From Escherichia coli (lineage in GTDB: Bacteria > Pseudomonadota > Gammaproteobacteria > Enterobacterales > Enterobacteriaceae): 64,000 nucleotides of DNA. The notes under the pieces are model-generated. The model searched no databases and was not told the DNA's origin. It saw only the letters and a program-made list of their open reading frames with translations. The position numbers and the translations under genes are program-made. Shown piece after piece: positions 13,880-29,928 of this stretch (its first letter is position 1; every line of letters begins with the position of its first letter). The stretch is from NCBI RefSeq assembly GCF_048403405.1, contig NZ_CP183129.1; one strand, written 5' to 3'.

Positions 13880-15241
<1,362 letters not shown>

Positions 15242-15380
15242 AACGTGAGGAAATACCTGGATTTTTCCTGGTTATTTTGCCGCAGGTCAGCGTATCGTGA
15301 ACATCTTTTCCAGTGTTCAGTATGGTGCCTTGCACGGTAATTATGTCACTGGTTATTAACCAATTTTTCCTGGGGGATAA

Positions 15381-16520
15381 ATGAGCGCGGGAAGCCCAAA
15401 ATTCACCGTTCGCCGCATTGCGGCTTTGTCACTGGTTTCGCTATGGCTGGCAGGCTGTTCTGACACTTCAAATCCACCGGCACCGGTCAGCTCCGTTAAT
15501 GGCAATGCGCCTGCAAATACCAATTCTGGTATGTTGATTACGCCGCCGCCGAAAATGGGAACGACGTCTACAGCGCAGCAACCGCAAATTCAGCCGGTAC
15601 AGCAGCCACAAATTCAGGCTACTCAACAACCGCAAATCCAGCCAGTACAGCCAGTAGCTCAGCAGCCGGTACAGATGGAAAACGGACGCATCGTCTACAA
15701 CCGTCAGTATGGGAACATTCCGAAAGGCAGTTATAGCGGCAGTACCTATACCGTGAAAAAAGGCGACACACTTTTCTATATCGCCTGGATTACTGGCAAC
15801 GATTTCCGTGACCTTGCTCAGCGCAACAATATTCAGGCACCATACGCGCTGAACGTCGGTCAGACCTTACAGGTGGGTAATGCTTCCGGTACGCCAATCA
15901 CTGGCGGAAATGCCATTACCCAGGCCGACGCAGCAGAGCAAGGAGTTGTGATCAAGCCTGCACAAAATTCCACCGTTGCTGTTGCGTCGCAACCGACAAT
16001 TACGTATTCTGAGTCTTCGGGTGAACAGAGTGCTAACAAAATGTTGCCGAACAACAAGCCAACTGCGACCACGGTCACAGCGCCTGTAACGGTACCAACA
16101 GCAAGCACAACCGAGCCGACTGTCAGCAGTACATCAACCAGTACGCCTATCTCCACCTGGCGCTGGCCGACTGAGGGCAAAGTGATCGAAACCTTTGGCG
16201 CTTCTGAGGGGGGCAACAAGGGGATTGATATCGCAGGCAGCAAAGGACAGGCAATTATCGCGACCGCAGATGGCCGCGTTGTTTATGCCGGTAACGCGCT
16301 GCGCGGCTACGGTAATCTGATTATCATCAAACATAATGATGATTACCTGAGTGCCTACGCCCATAACGACACAATGCTGGTCCGGGAACAACAAGAAGTG
16401 AAGGCGGGGCAAAAAATAGCAACCATGGGTAGCACCGGAACCAGTTCAACACGCTTGCATTTTGAAATTCGTTACAAGGGGAAATCCGTAAACCCGCTGC
16501 GTTATTTGCCGCAGCGATAA
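15381..16520 (+). CDS. nlpD: Murein hydrolase activator lipoprotein NlpD (LysM + M23 peptidase-like)
   Basis: 379 aa ORF with lipobox LAGCS, proline/glutamine-rich repeats and a LysM segment; directly upstream of rpoS. Confidence 0.9.
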
Positions 16521-16582
16521 ATCGGCGGAACCAGGCTTTTGCTTGAATGTTCCGTCAAGGGATCACGGGTAGGAGCCACCTT

Positions 16583-17575
16583 ATGAGTCAGAATACGCTG
16601 AAAGTTCATGATTTAAATGAAGATGCGGAATTTGATGAGAACGGAGTTGAGGTTTTTGACGAAAAGGCCTTAGTAGAAGAGGAACCCAGTGATAACGATT
16701 TGGCCGAAGAGGAACTGTTATCGCAGGGAGCCACACAGCGTGTGCTGGACGCGACTCAGCTTTACCTTGGTGAGATTGGTTATTCACCACTGTTAACGGC
16801 CGAAGAAGAAGTTTATTTTGCGCGTCGCGCACTGCGTGGAGATGTTGCCTCCCGCCGCCGGATGATCGAGAGTAACTTGCGTCTGGTGGTAAAAATTGCC
16901 CGCCGTTATGGCAATCGTGGTCTGGCGTTGCTGGACCTGATCGAAGAGGGCAACCTGGGGCTGATCCGCGCGGTAGAGAAGTTTGACCCGGAACGTGGTT
17001 TCCGCTTCTCAACATACGCAACCTGGTGGATTCGCCAGACGATCGAACGGGCGATTATGAACCAAACCCGTACTATTCGTTTGCCTATTCACATCGTAAA
17101 GGAGCTGAACGTTTACCTGCGAACCGCACGCGAGTTGTCCCATAAACTGGACCACGAACCAAGTGCGGAAGAGATCGCAGAGCAACTGGATAAGCCAGTT
17201 GATGACGTCAGCCGTATGCTTCGTCTTAACGAGCGCATTACCTCGGTAGACACCCCGCTGGGTGGTGATTCCGAAAAAGCGTTGCTGGACATCCTGGCCG
17301 ATGAAAAAGAGAACGGTCCGGAAGATACCACGCAAGATGACGATATGAAGCAGAGCATCGTCAAATGGCTGTTCGAGCTGAACGCCAAACAGCGTGAAGT
17401 ACTGGCACGTCGATTCGGTTTGCTGGGGTACGAAGCGGCAACATTGGAAGATGTAGGTCGTGAAATTGGCCTCACCCGTGAACGTGTTCGCCAGATTCAG
17501 GTTGAAGGCCTGCGCCGTTTGCGCGAAATCCTGCAAACGCAGGGGCTGAATATCGAAGCGCTGTTCCGCGAGTAA
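16583..17575 (+). CDS. rpoS: RNA polymerase sigma factor RpoS (sigma-38)
   Basis: Track ORF 16547..17575 trimmed to ATG 16583 ([21 protein letters not shown]); 330 aa. Confidence 0.95.
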
Positions 17576-17590
17576 GTAAGCATCTGTCAG

Positions 17591-17629
17591 AAAGGCCAGT
17601 CTCAAGCGAGGCTGGCCTTTTTCTTTTGG
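17591..17629. terminator. Rho-independent terminator between convergent rpoS and the MarR-like gene
   Basis: AAAGGCCAG (17591-17599) pairs with CTGGCCTTT (17612-17620), followed by TTCTTTTGG; A-run before and T-run after allow either direction. Confidence 0.6.
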
Positions 17630-17694
17630 TTGGGGAGCCGGTGTGTTTGTGGGCTGGATAAGCCGCAATAGCGTCTCATCCGGCAATTTGCACC

Positions 17695-18102
17695 CTATGT
17701 GTTCATCATCTTGCGCACTAGCTGCATAAACAGCTCCTGCTCTTCTCCACTCAAACGCCCCAAAAATTCCTCATCCACGCTGTCACCTATCGGTATCGCC
17801 GCAGCAAGTATCTTTTCGCCTTCGGCAGTCAGCCAGACAAAGCGTCGCCGCTTGTCAGCGGCGTCATGTTCACGTCTGACTAAGCCACGATTTTCCATTC
17901 TTGCCAACATTTCTGCCAGCGTTGCTTTGGTGCTGACGGCTGCTTCCATCAGTGCCACCTGTTCGATACCAGGTTTATCAGCAATGGCGCGCATCACCGC
18001 GTACTGTGGTTTGGTCAGATCAGGTAACTCGTGCTGCCAGCGGGCCGTGTGTTGCTGAAAAAGCTGTCGTAACTGATGGAACGCTTTATTTCGTAACGCC
18101 AT
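17695..18102 (-). CDS. MarR/SlyA-family transcriptional regulator
   Basis: 135 aa ORF with winged-helix MarR-like sequence; divergent from the ubiX-like gene. Confidence 0.75.
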   Translation of the reverse strand: MALRNKAFHQLRQLFQQHTARWQHELPDLTKPQYAVMRAIADKPGIEQVALMEAAVSTKATLAEMLARMENRGLVRREHDAADKRRRFVWLTAEGEKILAAAIPIGDSVDEEFLGRLSGEEQELFMQLVRKMMNT

Positions 18103-18248
18103 GTAAACTCCGGGCTAATTCTCTGTCGCTATCATAGCGGTTTTTCAGTGACGAAGAAGATGTTGTTACTTTTCAATCCTTGCCGCTGTGGAAATGAAGG
18201 AGTATGTTAATAATAACGTTCGTATACGAACAATTAAGAGAGTAAGCA

Positions 18249-18842
18249 ATGAAACTGATCGTCGGGATGACAGGGGCTACCGGTGCGCCTCTTGGTGTGG
18301 CATTACTGCAAGCGCTGCGGGAGATGCCGAATGTCGAGACTCATCTGGTGATGTCGAAGTGGGCGAAAACCACTATTGAACTGGAAACGCCTTACAGCGC
18401 TCGCGATGTTGCCGCCCTCGCAGACTTCAGCCATAACCCGGCGGATCAGGCGGCGACTATCTCTTCCGGCTCCTTTCGTACCGACGGCATGATCGTTATT
18501 CCATGCAGTATGAAAACGCTCGCCGGTATCCGCGCTGGTTACGCCGATGGCCTGGTGGGGCGCGCGGCGGACGTCGTGCTCAAAGAAGGCCGCAAACTGG
18601 TGCTGGTGCCGCGTGAAATGCCGCTTAGCACAATCCATCTCGAAAATATGCTCGCACTTTCGCGCATGGGCGTGGCGATGGTGCCGCCGATGCCTGCCTT
18701 TTATAACCATCCCGAAACGGTAGATGACATTGTCCACCACGTGGTAGCCCGCGTGCTGGATCAATTTGGCCTCGAACATCCTCACGCCAGGCGCTGGCAA
18801 GGATTGCCGCAGGCCCGGAATTTTTCTCAGGAGAATGAATAA
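18249..18842 (+). CDS. ecdB: UbiX-like flavin prenyltransferase (decarboxylase partner)
   Basis: 197 aa ORF starting MKLIVGMTGATGAPLG (flavoprotein fold); stop overlaps the next start. Symbol is from memory of O157:H7 annotation. Confidence 0.8.
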   Translation: MKLIVGMTGATGAPLGVALLQALREMPNVETHLVMSKWAKTTIELETPYSARDVAALADFSHNPADQAATISSGSFRTDGMIVIPCSMKTLAGIRAGYADGLVGRAADVVLKEGRKLVLVPREMPLSTIHLENMLALSRMGVAMVPPMPAFYNHPETVDDIVHHVVARVLDQFGLEHPHARRWQGLPQARNFSQENE

Positions 18843-20269
18843 TGGCATTTGATGATTTACGCAGCTTTTTACAGGCGCTTGATGACCACGGCCAGTTACT
18901 GAAAATCAGCGAAGAGGTGAACGCGGAACCGGATCTGGCAGCCGCAGCCAACGCCACCGGGCGTATCGGCGACGGCGCGCCCGCGCTTTGGTTTGATAAT
19001 ATTCGCGGCTTTATCGATGCCCGCGTGGCAATGAACACCATCGGTTCCTGGCAGAACCACGCGATTTCCCTCGGCCTGCCGCCAAACACCCCGGTTAAAA
19101 AACAGATTGATGAGTTTATCCGCCGCTGGGATAACTTCCCCATTACCCCGGAGCGCCGCGCCAATCCAGCCTGGGCGCAGAACACCGTCGATGGCGACGA
19201 GATCAACCTGTTCGATATTCTGCCGCTGTTTCGTTTAAACGACGGTGATGGCGGTTTCTATCTCGATAAAGCGTGCGTGGTTTCCCGCGATCCGCTCGAC
19301 CCGGATAACTTCGGCAAGCAGAACGTCGGCATCTACCGCATGGAAGTGAAGGGCAAACGTAAGCTCGGCCTGCAACCGGTGCCGATGCACGATATCGCTC
19401 TGCATCTGCATAAAGCGGAAGAACGCGGTGAAGATCTGCCGATTGCCATCACCCTGGGTAACGATCCGAACATCACCCTGATGGGCGCCACGCCGCTGAA
19501 ATACGATCAGTCTGAGTACGAAATGGCGGGCGCGCTGCGCGAAAGCCCGTACCCGATCGCCACCGCCCCGCTGACCGGTTTTGATGTGCCGTGGGGCTCG
19601 GAAGTGATCCTCGAAGGGGTTATCGAAAGTCGTAAACGTGAGATTGAAGGGCCGTTCGGTGAGTTTACCGGCCACTACTCCGGCGGGCGTAACATGACCG
19701 TGGTGCGTATCGATAAAGTCTCTTACCGTACCAAACCGATTTTCGAATCGCTCTATCTTGGTATGCCGTGGACCGAAATCGACTACCTGATGGGGCCTGC
19801 CACCTGCGTGCCGCTGTATCAGCAACTGAAAGCCGAGTTCCCGGAAGTGCAGGCGGTAAACGCCATGTACACCCACGGCCTGTTGGCGATTATCTCCACC
19901 AAAAAACGCTACGGCGGCTTTGCCCGCGCGGTGGGCCTGCGTGCAATGACCACGCCGCACGGTCTGGGCTACGTGAAGATGGTGATTATGGTCGATGAAG
20001 ACGTTGATCCGTTCAACCTGCCGCAGGTGATGTGGGCGCTCTCCTCGAAAGTGAACCCGGCAGGCGACCTGGTGCAGTTGCCAAATATGTCCGTGCTGGA
20101 ACTCGACCCTGGCTCAAGCCCGGCGGGGATCACCGACAAGCTGATTATCGACGCCACCACGCCTGTCGCCCCGGACAACCGTGGTCACTACAGCCAGCCG
20201 GTGGTGGATTTACCGGAAACCAAAGCCTGGGCTGAAAAACTGACCGCTATGCTGGCCGCACGTAAATAA
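18842..20269 (+). CDS. ecdC: UbiD-family hydroxyarylic acid decarboxylase, large subunit
   Basis: 475 aa ORF of UbiD-like length, coupled to the ubiX-like gene. Confidence 0.8.
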   Translation: MAFDDLRSFLQALDDHGQLLKISEEVNAEPDLAAAANATGRIGDGAPALWFDNIRGFIDARVAMNTIGSWQNHAISLGLPPNTPVKKQIDEFIRRWDNFPITPERRANPAWAQNTVDGDEINLFDILPLFRLNDGDGGFYLDKACVVSRDPLDPDNFGKQNVGIYRMEVKGKRKLGLQPVPMHDIALHLHKAEERGEDLPIAITLGNDPNITLMGATPLKYDQSEYEMAGALRESPYPIATAPLTGFDVPWGSEVILEGVIESRKREIEGPFGEFTGHYSGGRNMTVVRIDKVSYRTKPIFESLYLGMPWTEIDYLMGPATCVPLYQQLKAEFPEVQAVNAMYTHGLLAIISTKKRYGGFARAVGLRAMTTPHGLGYVKMVIMVDEDVDPFNLPQVMWALSSKVNPAGDLVQLPNMSVLELDPGSSPAGITDKLIIDATTPVAPDNRGHYSQPVVDLPETKAWAEKLTAMLAARK

Positions 20270-20279
20270 GGAGAACAAG

Positions 20280-20516
20280 ATGATTTGTCCACGTTGTGCT
20301 GATGAACAGATTGAAGTGATGGCGAAATCGCCGGTAAAAGATGTCTGGACAGTCTATCAGTGCCAGCATTGCCTCTATACCTGGCGCGATACCGAACCGC
20401 TTCGCCGCACCAGCCGCGAACATTACCCGGAAGCGTTTCGTATGACGCAGAAAGACATTGATGACGCGCCAATGGTGCCGAGCATTCCGCCGCTGCTGGC
20501 GGAAGGTAAGCGCTAA
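20280..20516 (+). CDS. ecdD: Decarboxylase small subunit (EcdD/VdcD-like) with zinc-ribbon-like cysteines
   Basis: 78 aa ORF with CPRC...CQHC cysteine pairs, immediately after the UbiD-like gene. Confidence 0.65.
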   Translation: MICPRCADEQIEVMAKSPVKDVWTVYQCQHCLYTWRDTEPLRRTSREHYPEAFRMTQKDIDDAPMVPSIPPLLAEGKR

Positions 20517-20550
20517 ATAAAAGGTCCGATGCCCATCGGACCTTTTTATT
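20517..20550. terminator. Bidirectional rho-independent terminator between ecdD and ygbN
   Basis: GGTCCGATG / CATCGGACC stem flanked by an A-run upstream and TTTTTATT downstream. Confidence 0.65.
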
Positions 20551-20554
20551 AAGG

Positions 20555-21919
20555 TCAAATTACCGCCCATACGCACCAGGTAATTAAGAATCCGGTAAAA
20601 CCGAGAATGGTCGTTAACACTGTCCAGGTTTTCAGACCGTCTGCTACCGACAACCCCAGATATTTGGTCACAATCCAGAACCCTGAGTCATTAATATGTG
20701 ACGCGCCAAGCCCACCAAAGCAGGCTGCCAGCGTCACCAATACGCACTGAATCGGATTCAATCCCATCACCGCTTCTGAGAGTAACCCGCCGGTTGTCAG
20801 GATTGCTACGGTTGCTGACCCCTGCGATGCACGCAGCGCCAGTGAAATAATAAATGCGGCTGGTAACAGAGGCAGGTCAATCATTTGTAGCATGTTGGCA
20901 AGGGCTTTGCCGACGCCCGATTCCACCAGCACTTTGCCAAATACCCCTCCAGCACCAGTAACCAAAATCACTACCGCCGCGGTGGGAAGGGCTGAGCCCA
21001 TAATGTCGCTGGTGTGTTGTAAGCTCCAGCCGCGACGTAAAGCCAATAACCAGAATGCCAGCACCAGCGCAATCATTAGAGCTACCATTGGTGAGCCGAT
21101 CAGCTGTAGCGTACCAAGCAGGGGATGCGAAGGCGGCATCAGTGTTGCGGAAACCGTACCCGCCATGATAATCGCGATAGGAATAACAATTAGCGAGGTG
21201 ACCAGCGCGACGCCCGGTGGATTTATTTTATCGCTTAATTTTGTCGCGCCTTCCTCACTGGCCGGAGCCAGTTGCATCTGTTCCAGTACTTCCACCGACA
21301 TCGCATATTGGCACTTATTGATTATTTTCGCTGCAAAGTAGCCAACAATCCCTACGGGAATAGAAATCGCAATACCGATGATGGTTAGCCAGCCGATGTC
21401 TGCGTGGAGTAACCCCGCTGCGGCGACAGGGCCTGGATGCGGCGGTACCGCCACATGAACAGTTAGCATGATTCCAGCGACAGGCAGGCCAAATTTGAGT
21501 GGCGATATTTTGGCAACCTTGGCAAAACCGTAAATGATTGGCGCAAGAATAATAAAGCCGACATCAAAGAAGACGGGAATACCGAGGAAGAACGCTGCCA
21601 GAGTCAGCGCAGCGATAGTTCGTTTGTCACCTAACTTGCGACTGAAATAATTAGCCAGTGACTCTGCACCACCAGAGTGTTCGATCATACGCCCCAGCAT
21701 AGCGCCCAGACCAATAATAATAGTGACGGAACCAAGCACACCGCCCATCCCGGCGATCATCACTTTACCCACTTCGCCCGCCGGTATACCCGCCGCAAGT
21801 GCGACTAACAGGCTGACGAGGAGCAGAGCAACGAATGGTTGTACCTTTGCCTTGATGACCAGCAGCAACAGCATGATTACGCCAGTTAACGCAATGCATA
21901 ACAATGTAATTGTGGACAT
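20555..21919 (-). CDS. ygbN: GntP-family permease
   Basis: 454 aa polytopic membrane ORF; position next to ygbM as in K-12. Confidence 0.85.
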   Translation of the reverse strand: MSTITLLCIALTGVIMLLLLVIKAKVQPFVALLLVSLLVALAAGIPAGEVGKVMIAGMGGVLGSVTIIIGLGAMLGRMIEHSGGAESLANYFSRKLGDKRTIAALTLAAFFLGIPVFFDVGFIILAPIIYGFAKVAKISPLKFGLPVAGIMLTVHVAVPPHPGPVAAAGLLHADIGWLTIIGIAISIPVGIVGYFAAKIINKCQYAMSVEVLEQMQLAPASEEGATKLSDKINPPGVALVTSLIVIPIAIIMAGTVSATLMPPSHPLLGTLQLIGSPMVALMIALVLAFWLLALRRGWSLQHTSDIMGSALPTAAVVILVTGAGGVFGKVLVESGVGKALANMLQMIDLPLLPAAFIISLALRASQGSATVAILTTGGLLSEAVMGLNPIQCVLVTLAACFGGLGASHINDSGFWIVTKYLGLSVADGLKTWTVLTTILGFTGFLITWCVWAVI

Positions 21920-22007
21920 GGGAAACCCTGTCTGAAAGTTATAGTTAACCTACCCCATCCGTAGATGGGGGGATGTATGGGTACGTTGTAATTAGGGATT
22001 TAACGAA

Positions 22008-27366: not shown

Positions 27367-29928
27367 TTACACCAGACTCTTCAAGCGATAAATCCACTCC
27401 AGCGCCTGACGCGGAGTCAGTGAATCCGGGTCGAGGTTTTCCAGTGCCTCGACCGCAGGCGAAGTTTCTTCTGGTACGGACAGCAAAGACATCTGCGTGC
27501 CATCTACCTGCGTCGCGGCGGCATTCGGCGAAATGCTCTCCAGCTCACGCAGTTTCTGCCGCGCGCGTTTGATCACCTCTTTTGGCACGCCCGCAAGGGC
27601 TGCAACCGCCAGGCCGTAGCTTTTGCTCGCCGCGCCATCCTGCACGCTGTGCATAAAGGCAATGGTGTCGCCGTGCTCCAGTGCATCGAGATGCACGTTG
27701 GCGACGCCTTCCATTTTCTCCGGTAACTGGGTCAGCTCGAAATAGTGGGTGGCAAACAACGTCAACGCTTTAATCTTATTCGCCAGATTTTCCGCGCACG
27801 CCCACGCCAGCGACAGACCATCGTAAGTGGACGTCCCGCGCCCAATCTCATCCATCAGTACCAGACTGTACTCGGTGGCGTTATGTAAAATATTGGCGGT
27901 TTCGGTCATTTCCACCATAAAGGTTGAACGCCCGGATGCCAGATCATCCGCTGCCCCTACGCGGGTAAAGATGCGATCGATAGGTCCAATCTCGACTTTT
28001 TGTGCCGGTACATAGCTGCCGATGTAGGCCATCAGCGCAATCAGTGCGGTCTGGCGCATATAGGTACTTTTACCGCCCATATTCGGACCGGTAATGATCA
28101 ACATGCGACGCTGCGGCGACAGGTTCAGCGGGTTGGCGATAAACGGCTCATTCAGCACCTGTTCAACCACCGGATGGCGGCCTTCGGTGATGCGAATACC
28201 CGGTTTATCAATAAAGGTCGGGCAGGTGTAGTTCAGGGTATAGGCCCGTTCCGCCAGGTTCACCAGCACGTCGAGTTCCGCCAGTGCGCTCGCGCTCTGT
28301 TGCAACGCTTCCAGATGCGGCAACAGCAGGTCGAACAGCTCTTCATAAAGCTGTTTTTCCAGTGCCAGTGCTTTGCCTTTTGAAGTGAGAACTTTGTCTT
28401 CGTACTCTTTTAGCTCTGGAATAATGTAGCGCTCGGCGTTTTTCAGCGTCTGGCGACGCATGTAATTGATGGGTGCCAGATGGCTTTGTCCACGGCTGAT
28501 CTGAATGTAATAACCATGAACCGCGTTAAAGCCGACTTTCAGGGTGTCCAGGCCAGTACGTTCACGCTCGCGGACTTCCAGACGCTCCAGATAATCGGTC
28601 GCGCCGTCAGCCAGCGCGCGCCACTCATCCAGCTCTTCGTTATAGCCCGGTGCGATAACACCACCGTCGCGTACCAGCACCGGCGGTGTGTCGATGATTG
28701 CTCGCTCCAGCAGATCGCGCAGCTCGGCAAACTCGCCCATTTTTTCACGCAGCGCCTGTACCGGAGCGCTATCGACATTTTCTAACTGCGCGCGCAGCTC
28801 CGGCAGTTGCTGGAAAGCGTGACGCATACGGGCCAGATCGCGTGGGCGAGCAGTTCGTAAAGCCAGACGCGCCAGAATACGTTCCAGGTCGCCGACCTGA
28901 CGCAGTACCGGCTGCAGCTCGGCGGTGAAATCCTGCAATGCGCCAATAGTTTGCTGGCGCTCAAGCAAGACGCGGGTATCGCGCACTGGCATATGCAGCC
29001 AGCGTTTCAGCATACGGCTGCCCATCGGCGTGACGGTGCAGTCGAGCACAGAAGCCAGCGTATTTTCCGCACCGCCCGCCAGGTTCTGGGTAATTTCCAG
29101 GTTACGACGCGTCGCGGCATCCATAATGATGCTGTCCTGCTCACGTTCCATGGTGATAGAACGAATATGCGGCAGGGTCGTGCGTTGAGTATCTTTCGCA
29201 TACTGCAACAGACAACCGGCAGCACAAAGTCCGCGCGGCGCGTTCTCGACGCCAAAACCGACCAGATCGCGGGTGCCAAATTGCAGATTCAACTGCTGGC
29301 GCGCGGTGTCGATTTCAAACTCCCACAGCGGGCGACGGCGCAGTCCGCGACGACCTTCAATCAGCGACATCTCGGCGAAATTTTCTGCATACAACAGCTC
29401 TGCCGGATTAGTGCGTTGCAGCTCTGCCGCCATCGTTTCGCGGTCAGCCGGTTCGCTCAGGCGAAAACGACCGGAACTGATATCCAGCGTCGCGTAGCCG
29501 AAACCTTTGCTGTCCTGCCAGATAGCCGCCAGCAGGTTATCCTGACGCTCCTGCAACAGCGCTTCATCGCTGATGGTGCCCGGCGTAACGATACGCACAA
29601 CTTTGCGCTCAACCGGACCTTTGCTGGTCGCCGGATCGCCAATTTGTTCGCAGATGGCAACGGACTCGCCCTGATTCACCAGTTTGGCGAGGTAGTTTTC
29701 CACCGCATGGTAGGGGATCCCCGCCATCGGGATCGGCTCTCCCGCCGAAGCACCGCGTTTGGTCAGTGAAATATCCAGCAGTTGCGACGCGCGTTTTGCG
29801 TCGTCATAAAACAGTTCATAAAAATCACCCATCCGGTAAAACAGCAGGATCTCGGGATGCTGGGCTTTCAGCTTGAGATATTGCTGCATCATGGGCGTAT
29901 GGGCATCGAAATTTTCTATTGCACTCAT
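27367..29928 (-). CDS. mutS: DNA mismatch repair protein MutS
   Basis: 853 aa ORF starting [18 protein letters not shown] with Walker [10 protein letters not shown]. Confidence 0.97.

Follow-up and report, generated by a model that had tools for sequence, protein, structure and literature searches.

The MarR repressor PcaV of Streptomyces coelicolor is released by protocatechuate: the dimer occupies a palindromic site between divergent genes, and its ligand is a hydroxybenzoate-type substrate of the regulated pathway. PcaV differs from HosA of Escherichia coli in having another operator sequence and in serving a ring-cleavage pathway instead of a decarboxylation. For HosA, a "14-bp TFBS of HosA" has been described from E. 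coli UMN026 (Cao et al. 2018, PMC6261655, citing Roy & Ranjan 2016 for the site). In that study, the 14-bp site was used for EMSA and BLI; HosA shifted the site in EMSA, 4-hydroxybenzoate (4-HBA) dissociated the complex, and a KD of 4.74 µM was obtained for HosA and 4-HBA by ITC. Release of HosA from the site by 4-HBA is credited to Roy & Ranjan (2016), as relayed by Cao et al. (2018). Two preprints on the structure of HosA, summarizing Roy & Ranjan, state that HosA represses both the operon for the non-oxidative hydroxyarylic acid decarboxylase (HAD) and itself and that 4-HBA relieves the repression; they also place the palindromic site downstream of the transcription start, and a preprint abstract reports crystal structures of HosA with 4-HBA. 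In what follows, HosA binding to the 14-mer, its release by 4-HBA, repression of the operon and autorepression are taken from these experiments of others. Our own analysis contributes the identity of protein and site, synteny and conservation, together with predicted promoter hexamers, predicted transcription starts and a proposed −10 role for a second palindrome.

The locus was read from a 64-kb window, by which we mean the whole stretch of E. coli DNA that was analysed (64,000 nucleotides). An earlier note on this DNA had pointed to two palindromes between a "MarR-like" gene and a divergent "ubiX-like" decarboxylase operon and had proposed both as candidate operators of the regulator, for substrate-responsive control of the operon. 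The genes concerned are the following:

17695-18102, minus strand: hosA, MarR-family repressor, 135 aa
18249-18842, plus strand: vdcB (ecdB/pad1-type), UbiX-family flavin prenyltransferase (NCBIfam NF041206, 312.2 bits, cut-off 290; Pfam Flavoprotein match)
18842-20269, plus strand: vdcC, UbiD-family decarboxylase subunit C (NCBIfam NF041204, 787.3 bits, cut-off 650; all three Pfam UbiD domains)
20280-20516, plus strand: vdcD, small subunit D (NCBIfam NF041205, 121.2 bits, cut-off 30)

The hosA product matches Pfam MarR PF01047 (46.3 bits, cut-off 24.6) and PF12802 (42.1 bits, cut-off 27) and is identical end to end at 132 of 135 residues (98%) to the protein deposited as "Transcriptional regulator HosA" in PDB entries 8AGA/8PQ4. 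Judged by this similarity, the "MarR-like" gene is hosA; judged by their family matches, the genes of the "ubiX-like" operon are vdcBCD, for the three subunits of HAD. Gene order in the window is rpoS (16547-17575), hosA, vdcBCD and mutS (27367-29928), so that hosA and vdcBCD are neighbours sharing a control region within the rpoS-mutS variable region of E. coli, flanked by rpoS and mutS. The locus has thereby gained its correct label, hosA-vdcBCD of the rpoS-mutS variable region. According to RefSeq annotation, these genes are carried by 2404 of 5426 complete E. coli genomes and are always chromosomal, and the 1.3-kb segment around the palindromes is 100% identical to several of the complete E. 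coli genomes.

Some features on the rpoS side of hosA were recorded in passing. A strong intrinsic terminator hairpin of rpoS occupies 17589-17622, where arms of 13 nt are 92% complementary and a T-run comes next; a sub-threshold Rfam match there to ctRNA_p42d reflects just the hairpin. Between this terminator and the hosA stop codon, the segment 17640-17694 (…GGCTGGATAAGCCGCAATAGCGTCTCATCCGGCAAT…) has the appearance of a REP-type palindromic unit. The mechanically called rpoS open reading frame begins 12 codons 5' of the point where the RpoS family model starts to align (residue 13; the extra codons span 16547-16582), and the internal ATG at 16583 is probably where rpoS truly starts.

The spacer between hosA and vdcB measures 146 bp (18103-18248), and both palindromes of the earlier note were found in it by direct scan:

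18218-18231, no strand: P1, here also O1, GTTCG-TATA-CGAAC, identical to the 14-bp HosA binding site of Cao et al. 2018, with matching flanks
18127-18139, no strand: P2, CGCTAT-C-ATAGCG, in its fully palindromic form only within Escherichia

P1 (GTTCGTATACGAAC) is a perfect 7+7 palindrome lying 17 nt from the vdcB ATG at 18249, and P2 (CGCTATCATAGCG) spans 13 bp and lies 24 nt from the hosA start codon at 18102. An inverted-repeat tool with a seed of 6 listed neither palindrome as such, and the direct scan listed both. The note had envisaged that corrected start sites might place the palindromes inside coding sequence; both instead fall within the spacer. The hosA and vdcB start codons are each the first possible start 3' of an in-frame stop, the boundaries of both coding sequences agree with RefSeq in other E. 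coli genomes, and residue 1 of the hosA product aligns with residue 1 of crystallised HosA.

Palindromes of either type are about as common in the window as chance would have it: there are 4 perfect ones of 7+7, compared to ∼3.9 expected for random sequence, and 20 of the 6-N-6 type, compared to ∼15.6 expected. As these counts are near expectation, the significance of P1 and P2 rests on position and conservation, and the conservation read from aligned spacers settles the matter for P1 but is only partial for P2. The reading that we prefer, with a probability of roughly 0.88, is that the HosA dimer has P1 as its one high-affinity operator and that the core of P2 is a −10 element of the hosA promoter, not a HosA operator.

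The proposal that P1 is an operator of the divergent regulator is borne out by the literature, as the published 14-mer of E. coli HosA is the same sequence. The oligonucleotides of Cao et al. (2018), of the form ...AATAATAAC-GTTCGTATACGAAC-AATTAAGAGA..., match the window over 18209-18241. Their layout is CAGAGGCGTATTTTAATAATAAC-[box]-AATTAAGAGAATAAACATGAG; oligo T_H contains GTTCGTATACGAAC, and DNA-HosA-F0 agrees with the window in its flanks. In the machine-read Table S1 of that paper, the box is printed as GTTTCGTATACGAAC, a nonpalindromic string of 15 letters with an extra T. We take this to be a reading error because the text gives 14 bp, the identical string stands in both complementary oligos, and T_H has the 14-letter form. 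With the extra T removed, the published probe matches at 98.3% the spacer before "decarboxylases subunit B" in 1902 E. coli genomes. When the HosA box was searched as GTTCGNNNNCGAAC with at most one mismatch, 5 matches were returned, compared to 2.3 expected, with P1 as the sole exact one. The function of P1 is therefore already known experimentally, and the site is used in biosensors; likewise, the substrate-responsive control that the earlier note envisaged, with phenolic acids as ligands, had already been published for HosA as relief by 4-HBA.

To place the spacer in a wider context, a HosA alignment was scanned against one genome per species, which gave 80 loci from ∼20 genera (Escherichia, Citrobacter, Salmonella, Klebsiella, Enterobacter, Kluyvera, Kosakonia, Leclercia, Lelliottia, Phytobacter, Pseudocitrobacter, Atlantibacter, Rahnella, and others). 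In 74 of the 80, a divergent vdcB lies 125 to 199 bp from hosA. O1 is present with two or fewer mismatches in all 74 of these hosA-vdcB spacers, and its outer ten positions, GTTCG/CGAAC, are kept in 70 to 74 of them: positions 2 to 5 and 10 to 14 do not vary, and 70 loci have G at position 1. Mean majority-base identity over the 74 spacers is 0.95 for O1 versus 0.61 for the remaining spacer. The central four base pairs (18223-18226) differ among genera by transitions only (T/C, A/G, T/C, A/G), giving the refined operator consensus GTTCG-YRYR-CGAAC. As a separate observation, the YRYR pattern is kept at the center although the palindrome is often broken there, which suggests that the center may be read through DNA shape and not through base identity.

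Next to O1, the spacer contains a predicted promoter of vdcBCD and the vdcB Shine-Dalgarno region:

18180-18185, plus strand: predicted vdcBCD −35, TTGCCG (TTG kept in 73 to 74 of 74 loci)
18203-18208, plus strand: predicted vdcBCD −10, TATGTT, family consensus TAnnTT (T1 in 73/74, A2 in 73/74, T6 in 74/74)
18236-18242, plus strand: vdcB Shine-Dalgarno region, AAGAGAG, aligned with TGAGG conserved in other genera

A consensus scan at a threshold of 9/12 listed no sigma-70 site; hexamers were then scored with a weight matrix of our own, and the promoters given here are predictions. By this score, TTGCCG-17-TATGTT ranks first among sigma-70-like matches on the plus strand of the spacer. The −10 hexamer ends 9 to 11 bp before the HosA box in 55 of the 74 loci, with a distance of 9 bp in the window. 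The predicted vdcB transcription start falls at ∼18215, which would put O1 at approximately +3 to +16, in agreement with the placement downstream of the transcription start in the citing papers. HosA bound at O1 would then block RNA polymerase at the vdcB promoter; 4-HBA, a substrate of the decarboxylase, binds HosA and removes it from the DNA, which switches on the operon.

A rival account gives the palindromes a role in RNA: P1 would form a hairpin at the 5' end of vdcB mRNA that controls its stability or translation, and P2 a terminator-like hairpin. A pattern scan did flag both palindromes as terminator-like stem-loops, and P1 can be folded as a 5-bp stem with a UAUA loop. The fold of 18215-18270, however, reaches only −6.5 kcal/mol (z = 0.54), and 132 of 200 shuffled sequences fold at least as well; the O1 center changes by transitions only, without compensation; P2 has no plus-strand gene reading into it, and the T-run that follows it is not conserved. 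Direct binding of P1 as DNA is, moreover, published (PMC6261655). We regard the hairpin account as scarcely credible, and the terminator-like calls at P1 and P2 were rejected for the lack of read-in to P2, the nonconserved T-run and a P1 fold no better than that of the shuffles. An Rfam scan of 15000-22000 found nothing in the spacer, the sole match being the sub-threshold one on the rpoS terminator hairpin.

The comparison of spacers brought out two further architectures. A second HosA-like box, G[AGT][TCG]CG-YRYR-CGAAC, is present in 35 of the 74 loci (L007, L018, L019, L028, L034, L036 and L042 among them), 56 to 57 bp upstream of the proximal operator, measured center to center. It adjoins the vdcB −35, and the equivalent position in the window is ∼18161-18174. 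Genera with this distal box are Klebsiella, Enterobacter, Kluyvera, Leclercia, Lelliottia, and Pseudocitrobacter; among the 74 spacers, it was not found in Escherichia, Salmonella, or the Citrobacter freundii group. The other case is E. coli 15.TR.026_OXA (NZ_CP032145.1, locus L083), in which an IS26 copy stands in place of hosA and of the left part of the spacer with P2, the breakpoint corresponding to about position 18164 of the window; vdcB, its −35, its −10 and the operator are intact. This locus is a natural hosA knock-out and should express the decarboxylase constitutively.

The proposal that P2 is likewise an operator was not supported. A position weight matrix (PWM) of the HosA box, built from the 74 proximal boxes, scores P1 at +26.5 bits and the next-best 14-mer of the spacer at −15.8 bits, and the latter is not at P2. 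P2 is absent from the top six PWM matches in the spacer and shares no half-site with GTTCG/CGAAC. Its palindromy is confined to Escherichia, all six arm pairs being complementary in only 4 of 68 homologous 13-mers, all from Escherichia (the commonest value is 4/6). No base of P2 differs among four full-length E. coli alleles, E. albertii, and E. whittamii, spacers that are up to ∼10% different elsewhere; at this place, another locus from an Escherichia sp. (L003) reads CGATATCATAGCG (CGATAT). Conservation across genera is asymmetric: the core positions T18130, A18131, T18132, S18133, A18134, T18135, A18136, G18137, and C18138 are kept in 61 to 72 of 74 loci, and C18138 is kept in 69 of 74, whereas the complementary G stands at the mirror position, 18128, in just 6 of 74. 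Such asymmetry fits a strand-specific promoter element and not a site for a symmetric dimer. A degenerate match, TTTCAGTGACGAAG at 18143-18156, was considered as a further HosA box and rejected, as its 8/14 agreement is at chance level and its PWM score is the −15.8 bits given above.

On the hosA strand, the P2 core instead reads as a promoter element:

18131-18138, minus strand: predicted hosA −10, GC-TATGAT (hexamer 18136→18131, G at −14 at 18138)

The corresponding hexamer TATSAT, with T1, A2 and T6 fixed and S free at position 4, is kept in 67 to 72 of 74 loci, and the G at −14 is kept in 69 of 74. TATSAT is the top sigma-70-like −10 on the hosA strand in 52 of the 74 spacers, where it lies 28 to 30 nt from the hosA start codon, with a GGAG ribosome-binding site after it. 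In other genera, it is paired with a TTAAAA −35 at 17 bp. The −35 available in the window is poor (TTCTTC, 2/6, spacer 16, score 5.6), and three other minus-strand promoter matches here outrank the combination. From the family-wide pattern, the P2 core most likely serves the hosA promoter as its −10 element. Any TAT-S-ATA sequence is inherently self-complementary, and in Escherichia the CGC/GCG flanks would extend it to 6+1+6 by coincidence. For annotation, this carries the warning that P2 is not to be labeled an operator.

Two other accounts of P2 have to be weighed against this one. The first retains the proposal of the earlier note, namely that both palindromes are HosA operators and that P2 is a second site for autoregulation of hosA. 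Autorepression of hosA is reported in the citing papers, P2 lies just 24 nt from the hosA start, it is constant across the aligned full-length Escherichia alleles, and two sites are common among MarR regulators. Set against these points, P2 has no recognizable HosA half-site, the best score apart from P1 lies elsewhere in the spacer, and palindromy at P2 is lost outside Escherichia while HosA and O1 are conserved. In addition, the second HosA-like boxes of other genera sit at a different place, by the −35 of vdcB. We consider a second HosA operator at P2 quite improbable. In the second account, P2 is bound by some other dimeric regulator or, in Escherichia only, has taken over from the distal HosA box that was lost there. 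It can point to a CTAT-N-ATAG core that is palindromic in most genera (again with 4/6 as the commonest number of arm pairs) and to a full 13-mer that is constant in Escherichia alleles amid variable neighboring bases; this constancy exceeds what a bare −10 element requires. The right arm, however, is kept as ATAGC in 61 to 72 of 74 loci, and the outer left positions 18127-18129 are complementary in only 4 to 52 of 74; conservation also runs on rightwards (G18140, T18142), which suggests a strand-specific element, and the distance from the hosA start codon suits a −10 followed by a ∼21-nt 5'UTR. A different regulator, or a replacement box, is thus unlikely in our judgment, if less so than a second HosA operator. 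For the reported autorepression of hosA, the minus strand of the spacer offers a candidate:

18210-18237, minus strand: candidate alternative hosA promoter, TTAATT (18237→18232)-16 bp-TATTAT (18215→18210), score 9.45, speculative

On the minus strand of the spacer, no sigma-70-like match scores higher than TTAATT-16-TATTAT. Its own 16-bp spacer is O1, which the two hexamers flank exactly, and the arrangement is not conserved outside Escherichia. A promoter with O1 as its spacer would explain the reported autorepression; purely as a hypothesis, autorepression of hosA could therefore be direct, from the single operator O1. Escherichia lacks the distal box that about half of the other genera possess, and its spacer is ∼25 bp shorter. 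One may speculate, with small odds in favor, that P2 serves a second factor as a site peculiar to Escherichia, or HosA as a weak site, and rewires hosA autoregulation; alternatively, autorepression could be exerted through the promoter overlapping O1.

Compared with the published E. coli HosA system (Cao et al. 2018; Liang et al. 2019), the window has the same 14-bp box, the same immediate flanks and the same divergent hosA-vdcBCD arrangement between rpoS and mutS. The differences from the UMN026 probe are allelic only (GGAGTATGTTAAT here versus GGCGTATTTTAAT, and AGAGAGTAAGCA here versus AGAGAATAAACA), with no functional difference apparent. Overall, little is new in this respect, as the HosA/4-HBA switch and its 14-bp operator have already been published. 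The next-best solved relative of the hosA product is PcaV of S. coelicolor (PDB entries 4FHT/4G9Y; E = 5.8e-16), which is distant in sequence. Within the family, the two-box spacers of Klebsiella, Enterobacter, Kluyvera, and Leclercia share with the window the proximal box, the predicted vdcB −35 and −10 and the core of the predicted hosA −10, but they have the distal box, whereas the window is without it and ∼25 bp shorter. The two-box architecture, which has no counterpart in Escherichia, may matter when HosA sensors are transplanted or when regulation is compared across species.
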